Part shown: positions 7,778 to 30,927 of the stretch, piece after piece
Position numbering within the stretch: position 1 is the first letter of the stretch
Layout of the letters: each line of letters begins with the position of its first letter
Assembly (NCBI GenBank): GCA_046082745.1
Contig: JBJTYK010000074.1
Span: 1-35,925 of the forward strand
Length of the DNA stretch: 35,925 nucleotides
DNA from: Actinomycetota bacterium
GTDB lineage: Bacteria > Actinomycetota > UBA4738 > HRBIN12
Direction of reading: 5' to 3'
Made by a program: the position numbers and the translations under genes
The notes under the pieces: generated by a model
Told to the model about the DNA's origin: nothing
Databases searched by the model: none
The model's input: the letters and a program-made list of their open reading frames with translations, nothing else

Positions 7778-8884
7778 CTAGCCGGCGACGAGCCGCAGGA
7801 AGATGAACGAGGCCGGCAGGACGAACAGGAGCGCGTCGATCCGGTCGAGGACGCCGCCGTGCCCCGGGAGGATGTTGCCCATGTCCTTCAGCCCGAGGTC
7901 GCGCTTCAGGATGGATTCGGCGAGATCGCCGAGCGGCGCGAAGATCGCGACGACGACCGCGAGGCCGGCCGCACGACCGATCGTGTCGAGGAGCTCCACG
8001 GCCGGCGCGACCGCGCCGATCGCGAGCGCGAGCGCCGCGATCGTGCCGCCGATCGCCCCTTCCCAGGACTTCTTCGGACTCACGCTCGCGGCGAGCGGGC
8101 GGCTCCCCCACAGGTAGCCGCCGAAGAACGCGGCGGTGTCGTAGGCGATCGTGAGCCCGATGACGGACGTGAGCAGCGACGCACCGTCCGGCAGCCGCAG
8201 GATGAGCATGCCGTAGCCGGCCATCACGCCGATGTAGCCGACGCCGAGGAGCGTCATCGCGATGTTCATGACGACGTCGCGTCGATGCCCCGGGGCCTGG
8301 GCGAGGAACCACAGGAACGTCGCGATGATCGAGAGCGGCAGCATCGCGAGCATCGCCGCCTCGCCCCGCAGGTAGGCCGCCGCGAGGATGAGGAGCGCCG
8401 AGACGAGGCCGACCGCGATCGCGGGCTGGTGGTCCGCTCGGCGGAGCGCCCGGTACCACTCGTCGAGACCGACGAGCACCGCGATGCCCGCGAACCAGGC
8501 GAACCAGGGCGCGCCGAGCCAGAGGGTCCCCACGGCGAGCGCGGCGAGCACGAAGCCCGTGGCCGCCGCGAGCGGGACGTTGCGGCCCGCGCGGCGCTCC
8601 TCGCCGGAGCCGACCTCGAGCGCGGTGGGGTCCTGCCAGCTCGGCCCCGCGGTCCCCTCGGGACCGATCGTGATCGTGCGGTCACGCGGCGCGGCGTCGG
8701 ACTCCCGGCCCTCGATCTCGCCGAGGAGCGCCGTGATGCTCCCGAACTCGCCCGAGGGGGGCGGCGCGCCGGTCACGCGGACGTCGTCGTCATCCACGGG
8801 CTCCTCGGGCGCGCGCGGCAGCCCGATCGGCGGCTCGTCCGACGTGTCGATGCGGATCGTGCCGGTGTCGAAGACCGATGGCAC
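7778..8884 (-). CDS. cdsA: Phosphatidate cytidylyltransferase with a long acidic/Pro-rich N-terminal region
   Basis: C-terminal signature SPKKSWEGAIGG...PLGDLAESILKRDLGLKDMGNILPGHGGVLDRID plus multiple TM segments. The coding signal continues upstream in another frame (see the 8885-9137 feature). Confidence 0.9.
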   Translation of the reverse strand: MPSVFDTGTIRIDTSDEPPIGLPRAPEEPVDDDDVRVTGAPPPSGEFGSITALLGEIEGRESDAAPRDRTITIGPEGTAGPSWQDPTALEVGSGEERRAGRNVPLAAATGFVLAALAVGTLWLGAPWFAWFAGIAVLVGLDEWYRALRRADHQPAIAVGLVSALLILAAAYLRGEAAMLAMLPLSIIATFLWFLAQAPGHRRDVVMNIAMTLLGVGYIGVMAGYGMLILRLPDGASLLTSVIGLTIAYDTAAFFGGYLWGSRPLAASVSPKKSWEGAIGGTIAALALAIGAVAPAVELLDTIGRAAGLAVVVAIFAPLGDLAESILKRDLGLKDMGNILPGHGGVLDRIDALLFVLPASFIFLRLVAG

Positions 8885-19519: not shown

Positions 19520-20539
19520 ATGCGGCACCGCACCTCTGGCCGACGGGAGCGGCGGCGGGCCGTGGCCACGGTGGTCGTCGGCGCGCTCGCCCTCGCAGCA
19601 GTGCTTCCGGGCATCGCGGCGGCGCTCACGACCGACGACGCCCCGACGACGTGGAACTGGCAGCTCGACGCCCAGGGCTCCGACGACGAGCCGAACCAGA
19701 AGGACCTCACCGCCCACGCCGCGGCGCTCGGGCAGGACGACACGTTCTGGGTGACCTGGAAGTGGGACGACACCCGCTTCCCCGGTAACAACAGCGGGGA
19801 CGCATGTTCGCTCTTCGACACGGCGCCCTTCGACGCGCTCGTCGATGCCGCGGTCTGCGTCACCGTGAAGGGGATCGACGCGGAACAGGTGCGCACATCG
19901 CCGCGGGTCTACCTCTGCGACGACGACTCGGAGGACCGCTGCTTCGGGGCTCGGCTCGTCGGTTCCGGCTCCGACCTCTCGACCGCGTGCTCGGTCGATT
20001 CGACCGCGCCGGAGGCCTTCGGCGGGAGCACGGCCGACACCCAGGCGATCTGCCACGTCGACCTCACTGAGATCGACGCGGGGAGCACCCCGATCCTGCG
20101 CAACACCTGCTCGTACCCGTCGCAGGAACCGAACTCCGACCCATCGGACTGCGTCCTCGCCGGCGTCGTGCCGCCGATCGACACGACGCCCTCGACCACG
20201 GCCGAGACCACGGCGATCCTCGCCGACGACGTGGCGCTGCCGTCGAACGCGGTGGGAACCGTGGTGTTCCGGCTCTACGCGGACGATCCAGCCGCCGAGA
20301 CCGAGACGCTCTGCGACACGCTCCTGTACGAGTCGGGCGAGATCGCCGTGGCGGACGGGACGGCGTCGTCGATGGATGACCCGAACCTCGCCGAGCCGGG
20401 CCCGTACACCGAGACGATCACGGCGGACACCACCTACAGCTGGGAGGCGCACTTCACGTCGGGGACGGACTTCTATCTCGACGCCGACGCGCCCTGCGGC
20501 GAGACGACGACCGTCACCGTCGCGACCGTCGCGCCCTGA
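19520..20539 (+). CDS. Secreted Cys-rich, Asp/Thr-rich protein of unknown function
   Basis: N-terminal RRERRR n-region, a hydrophobic core and AAA-L cleavage-like site. The mature part has 9 Cys. It has high GC3, a good SD and a strong downstream hairpin. No family recognised with confidence. Confidence 0.65.
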   Translation: MRHRTSGRRERRRAVATVVVGALALAAVLPGIAAALTTDDAPTTWNWQLDAQGSDDEPNQKDLTAHAAALGQDDTFWVTWKWDDTRFPGNNSGDACSLFDTAPFDALVDAAVCVTVKGIDAEQVRTSPRVYLCDDDSEDRCFGARLVGSGSDLSTACSVDSTAPEAFGGSTADTQAICHVDLTEIDAGSTPILRNTCSYPSQEPNSDPSDCVLAGVVPPIDTTPSTTAETTAILADDVALPSNAVGTVVFRLYADDPAAETETLCDTLLYESGEIAVADGTASSMDDPNLAEPGPYTETITADTTYSWEAHFTSGTDFYLDADAPCGETTTVTVATVAP

Positions 20540-22290: not shown

Positions 22291-22965
22291 TCAGCGCTCC
22301 CCGAGGAGGTCGGGGCGGTTCCTGCGGGTCTTCGCGAGTGCGGCCTCCCGGCGCCAGCGATCGACCTCGGCGTGGTTGCCGGACAGGAGCACCTCGGGCA
22401 CGGCCATCCCGCGGAACTCGGCGGGTCGCGTGTAGTGCGGGTGGTCGAGGATGCCGTCCTCGAAGGAGTCCCGCCGGTGCGACTCCTCACGGCCGATCAC
22501 GCCCGGCAGCAGCCGCGTCACCGCCTCGATGAGGACGAGCGCGGGGACCTCGCCGCCGGAGAGCACGTAGTCGCCGATCGAGACCTCCTCGGCCGGAAGC
22601 CCCTCGACGACGCGCTCGTCGATGCCCTCGTACCGCCCGCAGATGACGACGAGCGCGGGCTCGGCCGCGAGCTCGCGCACGAGGGCCTGGTCGAGGCGTC
22701 GGCCCGCGGGCGACAGGAGGATCGTCCGGCCCGCCCGCGGGCCGAGCGCCTCGACCGTCGCGAAGATCGGCTCCGGCTTCATCACCATCCCCGGTCCCCC
22801 ACCGAACGGCTCGTCGTCGACCTGCCGGTGGCGGTCCTCGGTGTGGTCGCGCGGGTCGTGGAGGCGCACCTCGACGAGCCCCCGGTCGATCGCTCGCCCG
22901 AGGAGGCTCTCGGCGAGCGCGCCGCGGAGGATGCCCGGGAAGATCGTCACGACGTCGATGCGCAC
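22291..22965 (-). CDS. trmD: tRNA (guanine37-N1)-methyltransferase
   Basis: [11 protein letters not shown]..., [28 protein letters not shown] and [14 protein letters not shown] start at 22965. Confidence 0.95.
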
Positions 22966-22971
22966 GCCCCG

Positions 22972-22977
22972 AGGCTA
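22972..22977 (-). promoter_or_regulatory. Candidate -10 box (TAGCCT) placed for a leaderless trmD transcript
   Basis: The minus strand reads TAGCCT-cggggc-GTG, so the 7th nt after the hexamer is the G of the trmD start codon. No SD is present. Motif match only. Confidence 0.35.
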
Positions 22978-23026
22978 CCGGGGGCCGCTTGCCTCGGCGA
23001 GCGGGCGACGGGAGGATGCGCCGACG

Positions 23027-25273
23027 ATGGGAACGGTTGCCGCGACCCTCCGACGCCTCACCCGCCGTCGGCGCGACGACGTCTACGACCGCATCCGGGA
23101 CGCGATCCGGGGCGCGCACCGCGTCCCCCGCGGCACGCGCCCCGGCGACCACCTCGCGCTCACCGCGCCGACGATCCGCATCGAGCGACCGGGCGGCGTC
23201 TGGGCGTCGGTCGACGCAGCGCTCCGCCCCGAGGCGTGGCGACCGCGGCTCGCCGACGGCGTCGAGGTCGTGGACTTCCCCTCCCGGCGCGGTCGCGCCC
23301 ACGCGATCATCGCGAGCCCCGATCGCCTCGAGCACTTCCGCGTCGAACCCTGGGAGGCGCGGCTCGCGCGACGGATGGACGGCACGCGGAGCGTCCAGGA
23401 CCTCATCGTCGAGCAGCTCGAGGAGGAGGGTGAGTTCGACGCGGCCGCCGTGACGCGACTCGTGACGCTCCTGCGCAGCGAGGACCTCCTCGCGACCCGC
23501 GCGGTGAACCTCCGGAAGGTCATCCGGCGCGCGCTCGACCCGACCCCGACGCGCCGCGCCCGCGTCTCGGAGTTCGGCCGGAGCCTGCGGGTGGACTGGG
23601 CGGGCGTCGAGCGGCTCACCCGATTCCTCCACCGCACCGTCCTCCGCCACGCCTTCCGCCCGGCGGCGGTCCTCGCCTGCGGGATCGTCTCCGCCGCGGG
23701 GTTCGCGGCGTTCACCGTGCTCTCCGAATCCCATCGCTTCCGCCTCGGCGACCCGTCCTACGCGGAGATCGCGGTGCTCCTCATCCTCGCCTTCTTCCTC
23801 ACCGCGGCGCACGAGCTCGGCCACGCGACGGCGCTCGTCCACTACGACCGGCGGGTCATCAGCTCCGGCGTGGAACTCCTCTTCGCGACGCCGACGTTCT
23901 TCGTGGACGCCTCCGACGCGCAGACGCTGCCGAAGCGCGAGCGCATCGTCCAGGCGTTCGCCGGTCCGTGGGCCGAGCTCGTGATGGCGGGGACCGCGTC
24001 GCTCATCGTGTTCGCCGCACCCGACGCCCCCGCCGCCGTCACGCTCTACCGGTTCGCCCTGTCGAACTACTTCTTCATCTTCCAGAACTTCATCCCGCTG
24101 CTGCGTCTCGACGGGTACTGGATGCTCTCCGACGCGATCGACGAGGCGGACCTGCGCGGCGCGTCGTTCCAGTTCGTCCGCCACGACCTCTGGTACCGAC
24201 TCCGGCACCGGGAACCCATCCGCCCGCAGGAATGGCTCCTCGTCGCCTTCGCGGTCCTCGGGCCGCTCTACGGGGTCTACGCCTTCTACGCGGCGGTCCT
24301 CGCCTGGGACCTCGGTCAGGTCGTCGGGGACCTCTGGGCGAACGGCGCGCCGTCGCGGCTCCTCCTCGCGCTCCTCGTCCTCGTCTTCGCCGGGCCGGTG
24401 ATCCGCGCGGGCTTCGACCTCCTGCGAACGCTTTTCCGCCGCCTCCGCGCGCTCGCCGCGCGCGTGCGCTTCCGCCTCCAGCGGAGCTGGCGCGCGGAGG
24501 CGGCGGAGCTCGTCGGGGCCCTGCCGGGCTTCGACGGACTCGGCGACGACGCGCGCGCGGCGATCGAACGCGCGGTGCGCCTCGGGACGTACGCTCCCGG
24601 CCAACCCGTCTTCCGCCAGGGCGACCGCCCGACGGCGTTCTACGTCGTGCGCAGCGGCGAGGTCGCCGTCGAGGACCTCGATCCGCACACCGGCGAGGTC
24701 CGGGTCCTGCGGACCCTCGGTCGCGGGGCCTCGTTCGGGGAACTCGGGCTCCTCGACATGGCGGCGCGCTCGGCGACCGTGCGCGCGACCGCGGAGACGC
24801 AGCTCTTCGAGGTCGGCAAGAGCGCGTTCGACCGGCTCCTGGCCGACACGATCGAGGCGCCACGGTTCGCGCCGTCGATGCAGAACTTCGCGGAGCTCCG
24901 GAGCCTGCCGACGTTCCGCCACCTGCCGACGGAGCGGCTCGCCGAGGTCCTCGAGCGCGGTGGCTGGGCGGGCTTCGAGACCGGCGACGTCATCGTCCAG
25001 CAGGGCGAGCCGGCCGACGCCTTCTACGTCATCGCCCGGGGTCAGGCGGTCGTCGACATCGACGGCGAGTTCGTCCGCGCGCTCGGCCAGGGCGCCTACT
25101 TCGGCGAGATCGCCCTCCTGCACGACGTGCCCCGGACCGCGACCGTCACCGCCGCGAGCGCGATGCGGGTCTTCCGGCTCGACCGCGAGGGGTTCGAAGG
25201 GGTCATCGCCGGCCAGTTCGACCGCGGGTTCCCCACTCACTACCGACGTTCCCTGCGGGACATGGAGCACTGA
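23027..25273 (+). CDS. Membrane M50/site-2-protease-like protein with a PqqD/RRE-like N-domain and two C-terminal cyclic-nucleotide-binding domains (paralog A, 748 aa)
   Basis: GGGAGGA SD lies 10 nt before ATG 23027. Motifs are HELGH (23810-23824) inside a TM helix, NFIPLLRLDG, and two CAP-type cNMP motifs (FGELGLLDMAARSATVRA and FGEIALLHDVPRTATVTA). The N-terminal MDGTRSVQDLIVEQLEEEG...LLRSEDLL segment is PqqD-like. Confidence 0.82.
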   Translation: MGTVAATLRRLTRRRRDDVYDRIRDAIRGAHRVPRGTRPGDHLALTAPTIRIERPGGVWASVDAALRPEAWRPRLADGVEVVDFPSRRGRAHAIIASPDRLEHFRVEPWEARLARRMDGTRSVQDLIVEQLEEEGEFDAAAVTRLVTLLRSEDLLATRAVNLRKVIRRALDPTPTRRARVSEFGRSLRVDWAGVERLTRFLHRTVLRHAFRPAAVLACGIVSAAGFAAFTVLSESHRFRLGDPSYAEIAVLLILAFFLTAAHELGHATALVHYDRRVISSGVELLFATPTFFVDASDAQTLPKRERIVQAFAGPWAELVMAGTASLIVFAAPDAPAAVTLYRFALSNYFFIFQNFIPLLRLDGYWMLSDAIDEADLRGASFQFVRHDLWYRLRHREPIRPQEWLLVAFAVLGPLYGVYAFYAAVLAWDLGQVVGDLWANGAPSRLLLALLVLVFAGPVIRAGFDLLRTLFRRLRALAARVRFRLQRSWRAEAAELVGALPGFDGLGDDARAAIERAVRLGTYAPGQPVFRQGDRPTAFYVVRSGEVAVEDLDPHTGEVRVLRTLGRGASFGELGLLDMAARSATVRATAETQLFEVGKSAFDRLLADTIEAPRFAPSMQNFAELRSLPTFRHLPTERLAEVLERGGWAGFETGDVIVQQGEPADAFYVIARGQAVVDIDGEFVRALGQGAYFGEIALLHDVPRTATVTAASAMRVFRLDREGFEGVIAGQFDRGFPTHYRRSLRDMEH

Positions 25274-25370
25274 CCGTGGCGGCCCCCGGTCCGATGTCCC
25301 GGGAGGTTGCGCGGGCGCGCCCTCGGGAGCAGGATGCGCCGACGGGCCGACCGGACAGGAGGGGAACCGC

Positions 25371-27671
25371 GTGGAGTGGCTGATCCTCGGCTTCGCGTGT
25401 GCGGCGACCTACGTCATCGCCCGTGACTTCGTCCGCGAACGTCGCTGGCGCGCCTCCCGACCGGACATCGCCGGGGCGATCGTCGCAGGACTCGCCGCCG
25501 CGGCACCCGCGACCGCCGCCGCGCCGCTCCGCGACCTCCTCGGCGACCAGGGCGGCCTCGAGGTCGGCGGCGAGCCCGGGGGGCTCTGGGCGGCGATGGC
25601 GGAGCGGATCGACCCGTCGTCGTGGTTCCCGCAGCTCGCCGCGGGCGTCGAGGTCATGGAGTTCCCCTCGCGCTCGGGCAACGACTACGCGCTCGTGCGC
25701 AACCCCGAGGGCGACTCGCACTACACGCTCGAGATCTGGGAGGCCCGACTCGCGCAGCTCATGGACGGGACCCGGTCGATCAAGGACCTCATCCTCCTGC
25801 GCCTCGAGGAGGAGGGCGACCTCGACCCCGCCGCGATCGCCGCGCTCATCACGATGCTCCGCGTCGAGGGCCTCCTCGAGCCCCGCGCCGTGAACGCGGA
25901 GGTCCTCCTGCGGGAGCGCATCGACCCGTCCTCGCCCGGCCGCAGGAAGCTGAAGGAGTTCGCGAAGACGCTCCGCCTGCGCTGGATGGGCGCCGAGCGC
26001 TTCACCCGCTGGGCCTACGGGACGGGCCTCCGCTTCGCGTGGTCGAGGCCCGGCGCCCTCGCGTGCACAGCCGTCGCGGCCATCGGGATGGTGCTCTTCG
26101 TGCTCACGGTCCGTTCCGGGACATTCTCCTTCAACTACGACCGCGCCCCCATCGAGACCACGCTGCTCATCGTCCTCAGCTTCTTCCTCACCTTCTGCCA
26201 CGAACTCGCGCACGCGATGGCCCTCGTCCACAACCGGCGACGGGTGATCTCGGCGGGCTTCCTCGTGTTCTTCGGCTCTCCGGCGTTCTTCGTCGACGCG
26301 TCGGACGGGCAGATGATCCCCCGGCGGGGGCGCATCTTCCAGGCGTTCGCCGGTCCCTTCGCCGAGCTCGTCCTCTGCGGCGTCGCCTCCGTGTTCCTCT
26401 TCCTGTTCCCGGAGTCCCCGGCCGCCCCGCTCCTCTACCGGTTCAACTTCGTGGGCTACATCGTGATCTTCGAGAACCTCATCCCGCTCATCAAGCTCGA
26501 CGGGTATTGGATCCTGAGCGACCTCATCGGCGAACCGACGCTCCGCGAGGTCTCGACCCAGTACCTCCGGCACGAGCTCTGGGACCGTATCCGCAACCGC
26601 AAGGGCCTCACGCCGTACGAATGGTCGCTCGTCGTGTTCGCCCTGCTGGGGACGGCGTTCGCGATCTCGATGACCTGGATCGGCCTCGTCTTCTGGCAGC
26701 AGCTGTTCGGCGAGATCGTCGCGAACCTCTGGCGGGGCGGTTGGGGCACCCGCCTCCTGCTCATCGCGTTCGTCCTCGTGTTCGGCGGACCGCTCATCCG
26801 CGCCGGCATCGACGCCCTCCGGGCGGTCGTTCGGCGCGCGAAGGCGGGGGTCGCGGCGATCCGCTTCCGCCTCGAACAGTCGTGGCGGGTCGAGGCGGCG
26901 GAACTCATCGGCGCGCTCCCGGCGTTCGGCGAGCTCGACGAGGACGTCCTCTCCGACCTCGCCGGTCGGGTCCAACTCGATCAGTTCTCCGCGGGTCAGC
27001 CCGTGTTCCGCCAGGGCGACCAGCCCGAGGCGTTCTACGTCGTGCGCTCCGGCGCGGTCGCCGTCGAGGACGTCGATCCCGACACCGGGAACACCCGGAT
27101 CCTGCGCACGCTCGGGCGGGGCGACTCGTTCGGGGAACTCGGGCTCCTCGACATGGCCCCCCGTTCCGCCACGATCCGCGCCATCGAGGAAACGCAGCTC
27201 TTCGTCGTCGGCAAGAGCGCCTTCGACCGGCTGCTCGCGGACGCGATCGAGGCACCGAAGTTCGCGCCCTCGATGCAGAACTTCGCGGAACTCCGGGCGC
27301 TGCCGACGTTCCGACGGCTGGCGACCGATCGCCTCGCCGAGGTCCTCGAGCACGGCGAGTGGCGGACGTTCGTCGCGGGCGACGTCATCATCGAGCAGGG
27401 CGAGCCCGGCGACGCCTTCTACGCCATCCAGCGCGGCCAGGCGGACGTCGCCGTGGACGGCGAGTTCGTGCGGACCCTCGGCCAGGGCTCGTACTTCGGC
27501 GAGCTCGCGCTCCTGAACGACACCCCGCGCACGGCGACCGTCACCGCCGCGAGCGCGATGCGGGTCTTCCGGCTCGACCGAGAGGGGTTCGAGCAGGTCG
27601 TGGCGGAACAGTTCGAGGGTAGCGCCATCCCGGCGCACTACCGACGCTCGATGCGCGACATGGAGCACTGA
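25371..27671 (+). CDS. Paralog B of the PqqD-like / M50 / 2x cNMP-binding membrane protein (766 aa), with an extra N-terminal hydrophobic segment
   Basis: AGGAGGGG SD before GTG 25371. Motifs are HELAH, NLIPLIKLDG, FGELGLLDMAPRSATIRA and FGELALLNDTPRTATVTA. It is collinear with paralog A and ends with the same RDMEH. Confidence 0.82.
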   Translation: MEWLILGFACAATYVIARDFVRERRWRASRPDIAGAIVAGLAAAAPATAAAPLRDLLGDQGGLEVGGEPGGLWAAMAERIDPSSWFPQLAAGVEVMEFPSRSGNDYALVRNPEGDSHYTLEIWEARLAQLMDGTRSIKDLILLRLEEEGDLDPAAIAALITMLRVEGLLEPRAVNAEVLLRERIDPSSPGRRKLKEFAKTLRLRWMGAERFTRWAYGTGLRFAWSRPGALACTAVAAIGMVLFVLTVRSGTFSFNYDRAPIETTLLIVLSFFLTFCHELAHAMALVHNRRRVISAGFLVFFGSPAFFVDASDGQMIPRRGRIFQAFAGPFAELVLCGVASVFLFLFPESPAAPLLYRFNFVGYIVIFENLIPLIKLDGYWILSDLIGEPTLREVSTQYLRHELWDRIRNRKGLTPYEWSLVVFALLGTAFAISMTWIGLVFWQQLFGEIVANLWRGGWGTRLLLIAFVLVFGGPLIRAGIDALRAVVRRAKAGVAAIRFRLEQSWRVEAAELIGALPAFGELDEDVLSDLAGRVQLDQFSAGQPVFRQGDQPEAFYVVRSGAVAVEDVDPDTGNTRILRTLGRGDSFGELGLLDMAPRSATIRAIEETQLFVVGKSAFDRLLADAIEAPKFAPSMQNFAELRALPTFRRLATDRLAEVLEHGEWRTFVAGDVIIEQGEPGDAFYAIQRGQADVAVDGEFVRTLGQGSYFGELALLNDTPRTATVTAASAMRVFRLDREGFEQVVAEQFEGSAIPAHYRRSMRDMEH

Positions 27672-27682
27672 GGGAGGACGAC

Positions 27683-27895
27683 ATGGATTGCTGGCACTGC
27701 AGGACCACCGCGGTCGGGGCATGCCGCTTCTGCGGTCGAGGGGTCTGCGAGGACCACGCCCAGACCCAGCCGTACGTGCTCGAGCTCTTCAAGGGAAGCG
27801 GCCCCACCCGGGCGCTCGTCGTGGAGGACGCCCTGTTCTGCGGCGCCTGCACGCCGAGGCCCGACCCGCTCGACCTGCCCGAGCTCGACGTGTGA
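27683..27895 (+). CDS. Small Cys-rich zinc-ribbon protein (70 aa), DUF2180-like by recollection
   Basis: MDCWHCRTTAVGACRFCGRGVCEDH ... LFCGAC contains three CxxC-type pairs. GGGAGGA SD lies 5 nt before the ATG, and the start is 12 nt after the paralog B stop. Confidence 0.6.
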   Translation: MDCWHCRTTAVGACRFCGRGVCEDHAQTQPYVLELFKGSGPTRALVVEDALFCGACTPRPDPLDLPELDV

Positions 27896-27906
27896 CGGGA
27901 GTCACG
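27891..27906. promoter_or_regulatory. Crp-type operator, TGTGA-N6-TCACG (9 of 10 consensus positions)
   Basis: tgtgacgggagtcacg overlaps the zinc-ribbon stop codon. Its centre is about 112 nt upstream of the peptide-1 ATG. Confidence 0.5.
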
Positions 27907-28010
27907 CGGACCCCGTGATGCCGGCGGCGCGCGACAGCGGCCCGCTGGCACAGGATGTGGCGGTACCCGTCCGGGAGTCGGCGGGGAGGACGAGCGGAAG
28001 CGAGGGAGCG

Positions 28011-28142
28011 ATGGCCGGAGCGAAGAAGGTCCAGCCGAAGAAGGCTGCGTCGAAGAAGGCCGCGCCGAAGCGCGCGGCGACCAAGAGCACTCGGGAGAGC
28101 CTGCGGGGCGGCAAGAAGTCGATGGCGATCCTCCCGGTCTAG
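28011..28142 (+). CDS. Lys-rich small peptide 1 (43 aa), the most divergent copy
   Basis: MAGAKKVQPKKAASKKAAPKRAATKSTRESLRGGKKSMAILPV. High GC3 and its own terminator. The SD (GAGGGAG) is only 2 nt from the ATG, so expression is less certain. Confidence 0.55.
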   Translation: MAGAKKVQPKKAASKKAAPKRAATKSTRESLRGGKKSMAILPV

Positions 28143-28165
28143 AAGTCGGACCGCCGTGCGGGATA

Positions 28166-28195
28166 GGGGCCGGGCCCGCACGGGCCCGGCCCCTT
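28166..28195 (+). terminator. Intrinsic-terminator-like hairpin after peptide 1
   Basis: GGGGCCGGGCCCG-ca-CGGGCCCGGCCCC forms a 13-bp stem, followed by TTCC. Confidence 0.6.
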
Positions 28196-28222
28196 CCGCT
28201 CCCCCCCGCCAGGCACGGCCGT

Positions 28223-28238
28223 TGTGACGCCCGTCACA
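28223..28238. promoter_or_regulatory. Perfect Crp/CAP consensus palindrome TGTGA-N6-TCACA
   Basis: ttgtgacgcccgtcaca lies in the 248-nt gap before peptide genes 2-4. A CAGAGT -10 candidate at 28260-28265 would centre the site at -41.5. Additional TCACA (28257-28261) and TGTGA (28270-28274) half-sites lie just downstream. Confidence 0.65.
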
Positions 28239-28390
28239 GTCCACCGGCACCGGCCATCACAGAGTGGGTTGTGACCGAGGGCACCCCCCGGGAGTGACCC
28301 GCGATGCGGCGGGACTCGGTTGCGCGGGGGAGGATGCCCGAGTCAGGCGCACCGACGAGCAGCGAGGATCGGAGAGGGGAGGCGGAGCAC

Positions 28391-28513
28391 ATGGCGGAGA
28401 AGAAGAAGGTCCAGCCGAAGAGGGCGGGCAGTTCCGCGGCCGGCGCGAAGAAGGTCGCGAAGAAGTCCACCCGCGAGAGCCTGCGAGCCGCCAAGGGCAG
28501 GCCAATCGCGTAG
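28391..28513 (+). CDS. Lys-rich small peptide 2 (40 aa)
   Basis: MAEKKKVQPKRAGSSAAGAKKVAKKSTRESLRAAKGRPIA. GGAGG SD upstream and high GC3 (AAG, GTC and GCG codons). Confidence 0.7.
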   Translation: MAEKKKVQPKRAGSSAAGAKKVAKKSTRESLRAAKGRPIA

Positions 28514-28552
28514 CCAGCGCAGCCACGACGACTCGGAAGGAGGGGGAACCAC

Positions 28553-28672
28553 ATGGCAGAGAAGAAGAAGGTCCAGCCGAAGAAGGCGACGGGCGCCGCT
28601 GCCGGCAAGAAGAAGGTCGCGAAGAAGTCCACCCGCGAGAGCCTGCGAGCCACTCGCTCCAAGATCGGCTAG
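28553..28672 (+). CDS. Lys-rich small peptide 3 (39 aa)
   Basis: MAEKKKVQPKKATGAAAGKKKVAKKSTRESLRATRSKIG. AAGGAGG SD lies 9 nt upstream. It is below the size cut-off of the ORF track and was found by hand. Confidence 0.7.
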   Translation: MAEKKKVQPKKATGAAAGKKKVAKKSTRESLRATRSKIG

Positions 28673-28731
28673 CGGCTCCGACGGCAACCAGGACACGAGC
28701 CTCACGAACTCGACGGAAGGAGGGAAACCAC

Positions 28732-28851
28732 ATGGCGGAGAAGAAGAAGGTCCAGCCGAAGAAGGCGGGCAGTTCCGCGGCCGGCGCGAAGAAGGTCGCG
28801 AAGAAGGCCACCCGCGAGAGCCTCAGCGCGAAGGTCGGGAAGGTGATCTAG
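28732..28851 (+). CDS. Lys-rich small peptide 4 (39 aa)
   Basis: MAEKKKVQPKKAGSSAAGAKKVAKKATRESLSAKVGKVI. AAGGAGG SD lies 8 nt upstream, and a terminator hairpin follows. Confidence 0.7.
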   Translation: MAEKKKVQPKKAGSSAAGAKKVAKKATRESLSAKVGKVI

Positions 28852-28869
28852 GTCCTCTGGAGCGAAGCG

Positions 28870-28906
28870 AACGGCGGGCCCGCAAGGGCCCGCCGTTCCT
28901 GTTTCC
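28870..28906 (+). terminator. Intrinsic terminator after the peptide array
   Basis: AACGGCGGGCCC-gcaa-GGGCCCGCCGTT forms a 12-bp stem, followed by CCTGTTTCC. Confidence 0.7.
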
Positions 28907-28938
28907 CCGGCCGTGTGGCCCCGCCACCCCTGCCGCGC

Positions 28939-28944
28939 TAGGCT
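28939..28944 (+). promoter_or_regulatory. Candidate -10 box (TAGGCT) for a near-leaderless crp-like transcript
   Basis: gcTAGGCTccgcc ends 9 nt before ATG 28954, which has no SD. Nearly the same string (gcTAGACTccgcc) lies upstream of rpsB on the minus strand (11938-11943). Confidence 0.3.
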
Positions 28945-28953
28945 CCGCCCCTG

Positions 28954-29658
28954 ATGTCGCCCTTGGACCAGACCGCGGTCGTCGAGAAGGCCATGACCCA
29001 GTCCCCCACCTTCGTGGGGGTCCCCCGCGCGCACGTGAAGGACTTCGCCGCGCAGGGCCGGGTCCGCGCCTACCGCCGAGGCACGTACCTCTGCCAGCAG
29101 GGCGACGAGGCCGACCGGGTCTACTTCCTCGTGAAGGGCCGGGTCGAGATCAGCTCGATCTCCCTCACCGGCAACCGGATCCTCCACGCGACGGTCGACC
29201 AGCCCCAATTCCTCGGGGAGCTCCCCGTGCTCGGCGAGATGGATCGCACGGCGGACCTCCTCGCCCTGGAGGACAGCGAGGTCTGGAGCATCGCGGCGGG
29301 CCGGTTCCTCGACTTCGTGACCTCGGAGCCGTCCGCCGCGCGCCAGGTGCTCGCGGCGCTCGCCCGCCAGGTCCGCGAGCACGAATCGTTCGTGGACGAC
29401 CTCCTGTTCCTCGACCTGAAGGGCCGGGTCGCCAAGCGCCTCCTCCAGATGGGCACCTCGACGCTCTCGGAGCTCCCCGAGGACGGCTCCTCGATCCCGG
29501 CCGTCACCCACGCGGACCTCGCGAGCCTGTGCGGCGGGAGCCGGGAGAACGTCTCGCGGATCCTCTCGGACCTCCAGCGCCGGGGCGTCGTCTCACGCGA
29601 GGGCTCGCGCTACGTCCTCGCGAAGGTCTCGTACCTCGCGCGGCTCGCCGCGCTCTAG
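28954..29658 (+). CDS. Crp/Fnr-family cNMP-binding transcriptional regulator
   Basis: A cNMP-binding barrel (FLGELPVLGEMDRTADLLA) plus a C-terminal HTH. GRVAKRLLQMG and HADLASLCGGSRENVSRILSDLQRRG resemble mycobacterial Crp. The recognition helix is R-E-x-V-x-R, as in E. coli CRP (RETVGR). The alternative start ATG near 28993 is not excluded. Confidence 0.85.
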   Translation: MSPLDQTAVVEKAMTQSPTFVGVPRAHVKDFAAQGRVRAYRRGTYLCQQGDEADRVYFLVKGRVEISSISLTGNRILHATVDQPQFLGELPVLGEMDRTADLLALEDSEVWSIAAGRFLDFVTSEPSAARQVLAALARQVREHESFVDDLLFLDLKGRVAKRLLQMGTSTLSELPEDGSSIPAVTHADLASLCGGSRENVSRILSDLQRRGVVSREGSRYVLAKVSYLARLAAL

Positions 29659-30170
29659 CCTTCGTCGGGGGCGGTGAGCCCCGGCAGGTCTCGGACGACG
29701 ATCCGCCGCTGCCCGACGTCCACGGAGACGAGCACGTCGCGGAGCACCGGCACGAGGGTCTCCTCCCCCGCCCGCACGACGCTCCAGACGTCGTTCGCCG
29801 GGGTGTGGATGACATCGGAAAGCACGCCGAGGTCGCGGCCGGCGTCGGTCGCGACCGCGCACCCGACGAGGTCGTGGTCCCACCAGGAGCCCTCGGGAAG
29901 CGGCGGCGAGGACGACGCCGGCACGACGAGGGTCTTCCCCGCGAGGGCCTTCGCGACCTCGCGGTCGGCGACGCCCGCGAACGTGACGAGCAGGAGCCCG
30001 CGGTGGCGGCGGGCGGCGGTCACGGTGAGCGGGCGGCCGTCCTCGAGGTGGACCGTCGCGCCGGGGTCGAAGCGGCTGGCGACGTCGGTGAGGACGACGA
30101 CCGCGAGTTCGCCCCGCACCCCGTGGGGGCGGCTGATGCGGCCGACCGCGACGGTCGGCTCCGCGGTCAT
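29655..30170 (-). CDS. rimM: 16S rRNA processing protein RimM
   Basis: VAVGRISRPHGVRGELAV..., a PRC-barrel C-terminus, and operon position after the KH protein. Its stop shares CTAG with the convergent crp-like stop. Confidence 0.9.
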   Translation of the reverse strand: MTAEPTVAVGRISRPHGVRGELAVVVLTDVASRFDPGATVHLEDGRPLTVTAARRHRGLLLVTFAGVADREVAKALAGKTLVVPASSSPPLPEGSWWDHDLVGCAVATDAGRDLGVLSDVIHTPANDVWSVVRAGEETLVPVLRDVLVSVDVGQRRIVVRDLPGLTAPDEG

Positions 30171-30406
30171 CCCTCCGGGTCGAGGATCTCGACGGAGACG
30201 CGGCGGTCGTCGCGGATCGCGGCGGCCTTCACGACGCTCCGCATCGCGCGGGCGATGCGGCCGCCCTTGCCGATGATCCGACCCATGTCGGCCTCGGCGA
30301 AGGAGAGCTGGAGGAGGGTGCCGCGGTCGTCCTGCACCTCGGTCACGCGGACGGCGTCGGGCTCATCCGCGAGTTGCTTCGCGATGAACTCGAGGAGTTC
30401 CCTCAC
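30167..30406 (-). CDS. KH-domain RNA-binding protein (YlqC/UPF0109 type)
   Basis: GTG start giving [59 protein letters not shown], which contains GKGG. Conserved position between rpsP and rimM. Both junctions are 4-nt overlaps. Confidence 0.85.
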
Positions 30407-30927
30407 GCCTCGGGCTGGGGCTCGTCGGCGGACGTCTCGGCGGCGGGGGCCTCGACCTGCGGTTCCTCGACCGGGGCGGCTTCTGCGGCCTCGGCCGTCG
30501 CGGCCTCCGCGGCCGCTGCCTCGGCTGCGGCGGCGGCCTTCGCTGCCTCCGCCTCGGCCTTCGCGGCGGATGCGGCGGCGGCCTCGGCTGCTGCGGCGGC
30601 CTTCGCGCCGACGCGCGGCGGGCGCTTGCGCGCGCGCTCGCCGCCACGGGGCTTGCCGGCCTCGGGGCGCTCGGCGACGAACTTCGGCCAGATGCCGACC
30701 TTGTCCATGAGGTTGCGGACGGTCTCGCTCGGCTGGGCGCCGGTGCGGAGCCAGTGGAGGGCGCGGGCCTCGTCGATCTCGATCCGCGAGGGCTCGTCGA
30801 GGGGGTGGTAGCGGCCGATGTTCTCGATGAAGCGGCCGTCGCGGGGGGAGCGCTGGTCGGCGACCACGACGCGGTAGAAGGGGCGCTTGTTCGCCCCGAG
30901 CCGCCGAAGCCTGATCCTCGTGGTCAT
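30403..30927 (-). CDS. rpsP: 30S ribosomal protein S16 with an Ala/Glu-rich C-terminal extension
   Basis: [43 protein letters not shown], followed by a long [35 protein letters not shown] tail. Confidence 0.95.

Follow-up and report, generated by a model that had tools for sequence, protein, structure and literature searches.

A family of small basic peptide genes in a putatively cAMP-controlled cassette of uncultured Actinomycetota

Membrane metalloproteases of family M50 already serve as peptidases in some RRE-dependent RiPP systems, such as the epipeptide EpeX/EpeP and the pearlins TglA/TglG and TmoA/TmoG (PMC10885120). In these, short ribosomal peptides have a conserved recognition part and a variable part, a PqqD-like recognition domain is encoded in the cluster, and the M50 protein is the associated peptidase. 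SpoIVFB-type (group III) site-2 proteases combine an M50 core (HExxH and NxxPxxxLDG) with a cytoplasmic nucleotide-sensing module, in that case a CBS domain. Lysine-rich repeat proteins are known from the bacterial histone-H1-like families (chlamydial Hc2, PF07382; Burkholderia H1-like, NF038053; the Rv3852 family, NF050153), and TGTGA-N6-TCACA palindromes mark the promoters of CRP/cAMP regulons (E. coli CRP, M. tuberculosis Crp Rv3676). Here, we describe a locus that shares some features with each of them. It is found in a window (the whole stretch of DNA analyzed, 35,925 nucleotides, contig JBJTYK010000074.1 of assembly GCA_046082745.1) from an uncultured member of the Actinomycetota. Compared with the M50 RiPP systems, there is no tailoring enzyme (no radical-SAM epimerase, PEARL, or MNIO) and no transporter in the contexts examined, the RRE-like domain is fused to the protease itself together with two cNMP-binding domains, the peptides are polycationic and Cys-free, and expression appears to be wired to a dedicated Crp. 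Compared with SpoIVFB, the sensor is two cNMP-binding domains rather than CBS, an N-terminal PqqD-like domain is present, and the candidate substrates lack the hydrophobic pro-sequence of Pro-sigmaK, although here too the likely substrate is a cytoplasmically made protein rather than a classical transmembrane anti-sigma factor. The peptides share with the H1-like proteins an extreme Lys/Arg/Ala content and short tandem basic repeats that vary in number and sequence between lineages, but they are three to eight times shorter, have a different genomic context, and carry a specific conserved head that is absent from those families. Literature searches found no description of this cassette.

Four small genes are present on the + strand, P1 (28011-28142, 43 aa), P2 (28391-28513, 40 aa), P3 (28553-28672, 39 aa), and P4 (28732-28851, 39 aa), coordinates including stop codons, and the translations given by the sequence-only reading were correct. 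Each has a GGAGG-type Shine-Dalgarno site 6-10 nt before its ATG and a GC3 of 0.90-0.97, the same as in the neighboring genes. Among the four, 18 columns are invariant, all within residues 1-31, and P2 and P4 are 29/31 identical up to TRESL, after which the sequences cannot be aligned at either the DNA or the protein level. P2-P4 form a tandem array with a period of about 162 nt (2.6 copies, 81% matches), and a family HMM hit the window only at these four places. P1 is annotated in the NCBI record as a hypothetical protein, while P2-P4 are absent from the protein collection and, thus, unannotated. The genes form two units, each ending in a strong GC-rich hairpin on the + strand, at 28166-28193 after P1 (-43.7 kcal/mol, z -3.5, 0 of 200 shuffles as stable) and at 28869-28898 after P4 (-41.3 kcal/mol, z -5.6). 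Both were missed by a consensus terminator scan because they lack long T runs, but folding shows them clearly, and an equivalent strong hairpin follows the last peptide gene in every locus examined. The tails had been described as hypervariable in all four copies, but this does not hold for P1, whose short hydrophobic tail (GGKKSMAILPV) is conserved as GGKKS[MI]x-ILPV in the orthologous first gene of two other contigs, L001 (8090-8218) and L002 (185-316). Identical partial copies of P4 occur on two further short-read contigs. An AF2 model of P2 shows coil for residues 1-14 and a single helix for 15-35 (pLDDT 72, pTM 0.26), with no fold, and says little about function.

The clearest functional signal at the locus, which had not been noticed from the sequence alone, is a pair of CRP-type palindromes just upstream of the two units. 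They are the only matches to TGTGA-N6-TCACA with at most 1 mismatch in the window, where 0.09 are expected. The first, TGTGACGGGAGTCACG (27891-27906), overlaps the stop codon of the preceding gene and is followed by a degenerate second site (27914-27929) and a -10-like CAGGAT (27951-27956), from which the transcription start site can only be guessed. It is conserved at the same place in L001, L002, and L005 (a further related locus) and in nearly all of the 80 metagenome loci. The second is the perfect palindrome TGTGACGCCCGTCACA (28223-28238), with a further degenerate site, TGTGACCGAGGGCACC, at 28270-28285; the equivalent perfect site is present in L001 at 8778 and in L002 at 730. Unlike the classical regulons mentioned above, here a dedicated regulator-target pair sits in one cassette, and in many lineages the operators form arrays of 2-4 sites spaced 23-24 bp apart. 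The regulator gene (28954-29658, + strand, 234 aa) lies downstream of the peptide genes and codes for a Crp-family protein with a cNMP-binding domain (Pfam cNMP_binding, 1.3e-20; HTH_Crp_2, 4.3e-14; Crp, 3.5e-08), an intact GELPVLGEMDRTA cassette, and an HTH carrying the R-E-x-x-x-R recognition helix (RENVSR). It has its own -10-like box, GCTAGGCT, at 28937-28944.

Upstream of the peptides there are two paralogous membrane M50 (site-2-protease-type) proteins with 58% identity, both on the + strand. M50A (23027-25273, 748 aa) has HELGH and two C-terminal cNMP-binding domains (5.9e-41, two stretches) but only a weak Peptidase_M50 match. M50B (25371-27671, 766 aa) has HELAH at nt 26199 and NLIPLIKLDG at nt 26475, plus two cNMP-binding domains with intact GE...R[ST]A phosphate-binding cassettes (cNMP_binding, 3.3e-46; Peptidase_M50, 3.3e-05). 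Both carry an N-terminal PqqD-like domain of the RRE type, located at about 23276-23500 in M50A and at 25662-25886 in M50B. An hhalign comparison of this domain (alignment of 18 loci) with PqqD (11 annotated pqqD genes) gave a probability of 86.7%, P of 4.4e-06, and a score of 38.0 over 72 aligned columns, while column shuffles scored 12.1 +/- 2.5 and the Crp winged helix gave a probability of 0.7%. It should be noted that this probability is below the customary 95% and that Pfam's own PqqD model does not reach its threshold; sub-threshold Pfam hits went to PaaA-like_N (5 of 18 members) and PqqD (1 of 18). The statement in the sequence-only reading that no modification enzyme is nearby holds for tailoring enzymes, but the adjacent proteases carry a peptide-recognition-like domain. 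Between M50B and the first operator lies a Cys-rich zinc-finger protein of 70 aa (27683-27895, + strand) of the DUF2180 family (PF09947, 25.8 bits against a gathering threshold of 22.2, E 1.2e-05), with an AN1/C5HCH-like C-x2-C...C-x2-C-x4-C-x2-H...C-x2-C pattern and an acidic C terminus. It is 100% identical in three lineages (the window, L001, and L005), and the 17-22 nucleotide differences between them are all synonymous. Its AF2 model has a pLDDT of 75, and a Foldseek search against the PDB gave no match better than E about 1, the top rows being cross-brace zinc fingers, which we treat only as a lead.

The peptides are a lineage-specific branch of a much larger unnamed family. The narrow subfamily (KKVQPK...TRESL) was not detected among GTDB species representatives: a scan with the peptide alignment matched 67 patterns, none confirmed by tblastn, and a combined DNA pattern (KKV[QE]PK ... 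RE[ST]L) gave two hits, in an Acidobacteriaceae MAG and a Patescibacteria MAG, both chance matches. An exact look-up of P1 in the contig index found no record, and that of the Crp returned only two short contigs. A search of 1.84 billion representative proteins with the narrow profile found 7 small relatives, all from three contigs, plus one spurious repeat protein. However, in loci anchored on DUF2180, the family HMM gave 100 hits in 83 of 84 loci, all on the same strand just downstream of that gene, and about 392 protein clusters of 35-70 aa match the family, all those that carry a name being called "hypothetical protein." Scans of Pfam and NCBIfam with P1-P4 and eight distant family members gave nothing above threshold, only compositional echoes, a PDB sequence-profile search gave nothing, and an Rfam scan of 27600-29100 gave no credible RNA family. 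No small ribosomal protein family (bL34, bL35, bL36, bS21, bS22, and others) was reported, apart from a chance L27 echo at E 0.16. The order M50-cNMP, DUF2180, peptide, Crp holds in all 28 long loci. Three peptides found by peptide similarity alone lie in the same place, with the complete cassette in two of the loci (L091 and L093), while in L092, a frameshifted long-read contig, only Crp is recognizable next to the peptide. The link to the M50-CNB and Crp genes, whose absence the sequence-only reading had named as a possible refutation, is essentially absolute. Of the 100 peptide genes, 89 have a CRP-type site 66-210 nt upstream, and the other 11 are downstream genes of multigene units. Among 12 close relatives, 239 of 835 differing codons in the head are synonymous. 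The boundary between conserved head and variable tail falls at residue 26-32 in 92 distinct peptides. In other lineages the tails are often lineage-specific basic tandem repeats (KRVHA x6, VKQ x7, and others), and repeat units with identical amino acid sequence differ by 103 nucleotide changes, synonymous by construction.

The RiPP-like organization proposed, and doubted for lack of a modification enzyme, by the sequence-only reading is partly supported, and the PqqD-like domain of the neighboring M50 proteases, together with the known role of M50 proteases as RiPP peptidases, revives a precursor-and-processing view. The interpretation that we favor, although only tentatively, is that Crp/cAMP induces the peptides and that the cAMP-gated protease processes them. 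When cAMP rises, the neighboring Crp would bind the operators and switch on the short and terminated peptide transcripts, although both the binding and activation rather than repression are inferred. The conserved head (MAEKK[KIV]xPK ... [ST]-x-R) would act like a leader, docked by the cytoplasmic PqqD-like domain of the M50 protein, and the protease, gated by its own cNMP domains as the CBS domain gates SpoIVFB, would cut the peptide, probably near the head-tail boundary. This would free or destroy the variable tail, whose composition points to a polyanionic target such as nucleic acid, ribosome, or envelope. In the window and in L001, both the protease and the peptide classes (the P1 type and the P2-P4 type) are duplicated. 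However, known site-2-protease substrates have hydrophobic or membrane-embedded segments, and these peptides have none (the longest apolar run is 6 residues or fewer, median 3, in 92 peptides). The PqqD-like domain could instead bind the DUF2180 protein or an unlinked substrate, and the conserved and partly hydrophobic P1-type tail suggests that a single mechanism may not fit all copies. An even more speculative extension, which we consider doubtful, is that the released peptides act as effectors on the nucleoid, the ribosome, or the envelope, or as released signals, a class of unmodified, RRE-guided, cAMP-dependent peptides with no described counterpart.

Alternatively, though less likely, the peptides might act uncut, as small histone-H1-like or protamine-like polycations that, under Crp/cAMP control, coat DNA, RNA, or ribosomes, for example during starvation or dormancy, with the M50-cNMP and DUF2180 proteins being co-regulated neighbors or controlling only peptide turnover. 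A nucleoid- or ribosome-binding role was among the alternatives offered by the sequence-only reading. The median net charge is +13, K+R makes up 33% of residues, the median pI is 11.5, and there is neither Cys nor a hydrophobic segment. Tail repeat periods run from 3 to 10 residues, so that composition is kept rather than any one amphipathic geometry. Besides, in many lineages the cassette sits inside the rpsP-KH-rimM-trmD-rplS cluster, and no exporter was seen in the contexts examined. The only database echoes are to H1-like families, but far below threshold (14.8 bits against 40, 16.4 against 80, and 17 against 100, for one family member only, with no hits for P1-P4). This view does not explain why a specific 10-residue N-terminal motif and a mid motif are conserved while the rest drifts, nor why a PqqD-like domain is fused to the invariably adjacent protease. 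None of our evidence decides between an intracellular and an exported polycation.

A toxin-antidote or stress-effector pair, in which the peptide is harmful to the producer or to competitors and the DUF2180 protein, the protease, or both neutralize it, seems unlikely. The adjacency of DUF2180 and peptide genes, the acidic C terminus of DUF2180 (PDPLDLPELDV) opposite a polycation, the tightly controlled and terminated transcription, and the rapid diversification of the tails between lineages would fit. However, DUF2180 is 100% conserved while the tails vary freely, and it therefore cannot be tracking them; there is no sign of mobility, no toxin-antitoxin family hit, and no export signal, and the locus sits among core housekeeping genes with a stable gene order in the loci examined. 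A classical RiPP or bacteriocin cluster, with modified and exported cores, is very unlikely. The conserved leader-like head and hypervariable core-like tail in multicopy arrays, the RRE-like domain next to an M50 peptidase, and repetitive tails reminiscent of multicore precursors would fit. But in the contexts examined (the window neighbors and six others) no radical-SAM, YcaO, LanB/M/KC, MNIO, PEARL, methyltransferase, or other tailoring gene belongs to the cassette, nor does any ABC or MFS exporter or immunity gene (moaA and prmC, next to some loci, are housekeeping genes and not conserved neighbors), so the locus does not meet the definition of a RiPP cluster. The peptides have no Cys and few modifiable residues beyond Ser, Thr, and Lys. 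Finally, cis-acting leader peptides attenuating crp, a noncoding RNA, or chance ORFs can be practically dismissed, in spite of the short, Lys-codon-rich ORFs followed by a hairpin and a regulator gene, since the head is conserved at the amino acid level across about 390 clusters with synonymous variation, conservation is N-terminal rather than stop-proximal, crp carries its own conserved -10-like TAGGCT/TACGCT box about 10 nt before its start codon, P1 is followed by another promoter and not by crp, there is no Rfam match, and the GC3 frame signal is 0.90-1.00.

If the favored interpretation is right, this is a compact and very widely conserved module, with more than 480 DUF2180 clusters and about 390 peptide clusters in public metagenome and MAG data, in which cAMP would decide both when a small peptide is made and when it is cut. 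It would extend RRE-guided peptide recognition beyond natural-product tailoring to signaling or physiology, give site-2 proteases a cyclic-nucleotide input, and assign a first context to DUF2180. The peptides themselves are below the usual annotation cutoffs, and with three of the four found here unannotated, the family is largely invisible in current genome annotation.

The four small ORFs were present as the sequence-only reading had described them, with exact coordinates, stop codons included, of 28011-28142 (P1, 43 aa), 28391-28513 (P2, 40 aa), 28553-28672 (P3, 39 aa) and 28732-28851 (P4, 39 aa). They share 18 invariant residues, all within positions 1-31. P2 and P4 differ at 2 of 31 head positions, and after TRESL the sequences are unalignable at both the DNA and protein level. 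Each gene has a GGAGG-type site 6-10 nt before its ATG, the GC3 (0.90-0.97) is like that of the surrounding genes, and P2-P4 form a tandem array with a period of about 162 nt. The two units end in hairpins of -43.7 and -41.3 kcal/mol (z scores of -3.5 and -5.6), which a simple terminator scan missed because they lack long T tracts. A family HMM hit the window only at these four places. In the public record only P1 is annotated, as “hypothetical protein ACKO8G_02345” in a MAG labelled Actinomycetota bacterium, while P2-P4 are not in the protein collection.

No Pfam, NCBIfam or PDB sequence match was found for the peptides, and a narrow profile recovered only seven small relatives among 1.84 billion representative proteins, all of them from three contigs. 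One of these (L001, 12 kb) is syntenic with the window and carries five copies, the second (L002) carries two complete copies and the start of a third, and the last (L005) carries a more divergent pair (...KKSTKDSM...). The first gene of the array keeps its tail (GGKKS[MI]x-ILPV) in the window, L001 and L002. This tail is therefore conserved, in contrast to the sequence-only reading, which had considered the tails hypervariable. The other tails differ freely and, among differing codons, 29% are synonymous in heads and 7% in tails. The 70-aa gene just upstream (27683-27895) is a member of the DUF2180 family (25.8 bits against a gathering threshold of 22.2). This zinc-finger protein is 100% identical over all 70 residues in the window, L001 (7762-7974) and L005 (1211-1423), although the genes differ by 17-22 nucleotides, all the changes being synonymous, which indicates extreme purifying selection. 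Its AF2 model (pLDDT 75) has no PDB fold match better than E about 1, the top rows being cross-brace zinc fingers. For P2, AF2 predicts coil for residues 1-14 and one helix for residues 15-35, with a pTM of 0.26.

Using the DUF2180 protein as an anchor in metagenome contigs, we obtained more than 270 relatives, of which 80 loci were fetched. An HMM built from 26 peptide heads found 100 family members in 83 of 84 loci, all on the same strand, directly downstream of the DUF2180 gene and nowhere else; the exception (L074) has one base of downstream sequence. Copy numbers per locus are underestimates, since a further, more divergent member (MPSKVTPKAPVAKGKASTSKAAAKKPVQKRTVKKHR), located between the terminator of the first peptide and crp in L011 (about 8730-8840) and at equivalent positions in L070, L024 and L026, was missed by the HMM threshold. 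The consensus is made up of a head (MAEKK[IV][QTS]PK.P), a mid motif that is either ...AAG[AS]RKAEKTSA[RK]R or ...AATRVTK (the ...AAGAKKVAKKSTRESL of the window is a variant of the first) and, from residue 26-32, a tail that differs between lineages. In 29 of 92 distinct peptides the tail is an exact tandem repeat of a basic unit of 3-10 residues, e.g., AKRVH x6.4, RRVH x4, KQV x7, RQA x8, KATH x4, RATLKKGS x5 and ARKQLAKKSL x4.8. Repeat units with identical amino acid sequence differ by 103 nucleotide substitutions, synonymous by construction, and thus, although the runs were selected for being exact at the protein level, the tails are translated and held constant within a lineage. Across the family, the median length is 44 aa, the median net charge +13 and the median pI 11.5; no peptide contains Cys, and no apolar run exceeds 6 residues. 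A 53-sequence profile retrieved about 392 clusters of 35-70 aa from 5.8 billion proteins. Every one that carries a name is a “hypothetical protein,” none has a Pfam domain, and the NCBI members are “Actinomycetota bacterium” MAGs. Three of these peptides, on long contigs, were chosen by peptide similarity alone; two contigs (L091 and L093) show the complete cassette, while the third (L092), a frameshifted long-read contig, shows only Crp next to the peptide.

The window contains only two matches to TGTGA-N6-TCACA with at most 1 mismatch, where 0.09 are expected. One, at 27891-27906, overlaps the DUF2180 stop codon, 112 nt before P1, so that the last codon and stop codon of that gene (GTG TGA) form the first half-site of the operator; the other, at 28223-28238, is a perfect palindrome 160 nt before P2. 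The same sites occur in L001, L002 and L005. Across the family, 89 of 100 peptide genes have such a site 66-210 nt upstream, and the other 11 are downstream genes of multigene units. Many loci have arrays of 2-4 sites at 23-24-bp spacing, followed by a -10-like NANNAT hexamer. In the loci long enough to judge, the gene downstream of the peptides is always a Crp-family regulator, and the copy in the window has the cNMP phosphate-binding cassette (GELPVLGEMDRTA) and the recognition helix RENVSR. As read from the translation, this helix matches the R-E-x-x-x-R that is known to read TGTGA in E. coli CRP. A strong hairpin follows the last peptide gene in every locus examined, and crp has its own conserved -10-like box (GCTAGGCT at 28937-28944 in the window; TAGGCT, TACGCT or TAGGGT at the equivalent position in nearly all loci) only about 10 nt before its start codon, which suggests that crp is transcribed as a leaderless or near-leaderless mRNA from its own promoter. 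The peptides are therefore independent, terminated transcription units and not leader ORFs of crp, although their activation or repression by Crp is only inferred.

In all 28 loci long enough to judge, the gene order is M50-cNMP, DUF2180, peptide(s) and Crp. The M50 proteins have HExxH and NxxPxxxLDG motifs and two cNMP-binding domains. The lineage of the window has two tandem paralogues, M50A (23027-25273) and M50B (25371-27671), with 58% identity between them and 47% in the PqqD-like domain, and the same double arrangement is present in L001 (3108-5354 and 5449-7749). The M50-cNMP gene is tandemly duplicated only in this lineage, the same one that has two separately promoted peptide classes (the P1 type, with a conserved hydrophobic tail, and the P2-P4 type), and the two duplications may be coupled as protease and substrate. 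The cytoplasmic segment between the first and second predicted membrane helices looked PqqD-like by eye, and we tested this by comparing an alignment of the domain from 18 loci with an alignment of 11 annotated pqqD genes from plasmid records. The hhalign probability was 86.7% (P 4.4e-06, score 38.0, 72 columns covering PqqD 13-89 of 92). In contrast, 60 column-shuffled versions of the domain alignment scored 12.1 +/- 2.5 (maximum 24.0) against PqqD, the reversed alignment scored 20.2, and the comparison with the Crp winged helix gave a probability of 0.7%. Pfam on single sequences gave only subthreshold hits, to PaaA-like_N (an RRE) in 5 of 18, PqqD in 1 of 18 and the PKMT winged helix in 7 of 18. 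The domain is therefore PqqD-like at the profile level, short of the usual 95% standard. M50 proteases have precedents as RiPP peptidases, namely, TglG and TmoG in pearlins and EpeP in epipeptides (PMC10885120).

No tailoring enzyme, exporter or immunity gene is conserved with the cassette in the contexts examined, and the flanks are housekeeping genes. In the window and many other lineages they are ComM, YraN, DUF2469, RNase HII, L19 and TrmD on one side and RimM, KH, S16, SMC and Fpg on the other. In the window, at 22291-30900, the whole cassette (23027-29658, + strand) is inserted on the opposite strand between trmD (22291-22965, -) and rimM (29655-30170, -), with KH (30167-30406, -) and rpsP (about 30403-30900, -) at higher coordinates, i.e., it sits inside the otherwise highly conserved rpsP-KH-rimM-trmD-rplS ribosome biogenesis cluster. 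The same insertion point is seen in lineages whose M50 proteins are only about 50% identical (L007, L020, L032, L078, L035 and L088-L090), while other lineages carry the cassette between prmC and moaA (L052, L063, L042, L091 and L093). In the latter type of location, an ORF of 221-263 aa with no Pfam match ends in an overlap with the M50 start codon (L052 5083-5811, L083 5023-5814, L042 5064-5810 and L093 2698-3363, all +) and may be a further cassette component in those lineages. A second conserved small ORF of 56 aa (MLxGEMAxYxIxDRVREAEAxRLARSTR...RRIGRAALAAATWPIKH), with a basic helix and a hydrophobic C-terminal tail, lies close to the cassette in 19 loci, usually divergent and upstream of the M50 gene (L091 2964-3134, L093 2380-2550, L089 2137-2307 and L063 4806-4973, all -, and 15 further loci), although tblastn found no copy in the window or in L001. 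The window also contains, between the YraN-like and DUF2469 genes, a 339-aa ORF (19520-20539, +) with a strong coding signal (GC3 0.93) and no Pfam family at E <= 0.001.

Altogether, the peptides are genuine, selected coding genes of a large unnamed family, preceded by CRP-type operators and located between a DUF2180 gene and a crp gene, next to an M50 protease with two cNMP domains and a PqqD-like domain. No profile library, solved structure or paper among those searched describes the peptide family, DUF2180 or an M50-RRE-cNMP protease. The components (a CRP regulon, an M50 peptidase, an RRE and a leader-and-core peptide) are of known kinds, but their combination is new to our searches, as are the inferred cNMP gating, the absence of tailoring and the polycationic repeat tails. 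Our tentative inference is that Crp-cAMP drives transcription of the peptides, that the PqqD-like domain docks the conserved head as a leader, that the protease, gated by cNMP, cuts near the head-tail boundary and that the polycationic tail is the active or regulated part. However, the peptides lack the hydrophobic segments typical of site-2-protease substrates, the RRE assignment is moderate, and nothing identifies the target of the tail. The chief alternative, also only possible at this point, is that the peptides act uncut as H1-like polycations on nucleic acids or ribosomes, which is compatible with everything except the unexplained conservation of the head and the RRE-like domain. A classical RiPP or bacteriocin cluster is unlikely since no tailoring enzyme is conserved with the cassette in the contexts examined, and an attenuation or upstream-ORF role, or a chance or RNA origin, is disfavored. 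The two leading readings may be combined, with the protease controlling an intracellular polycation.
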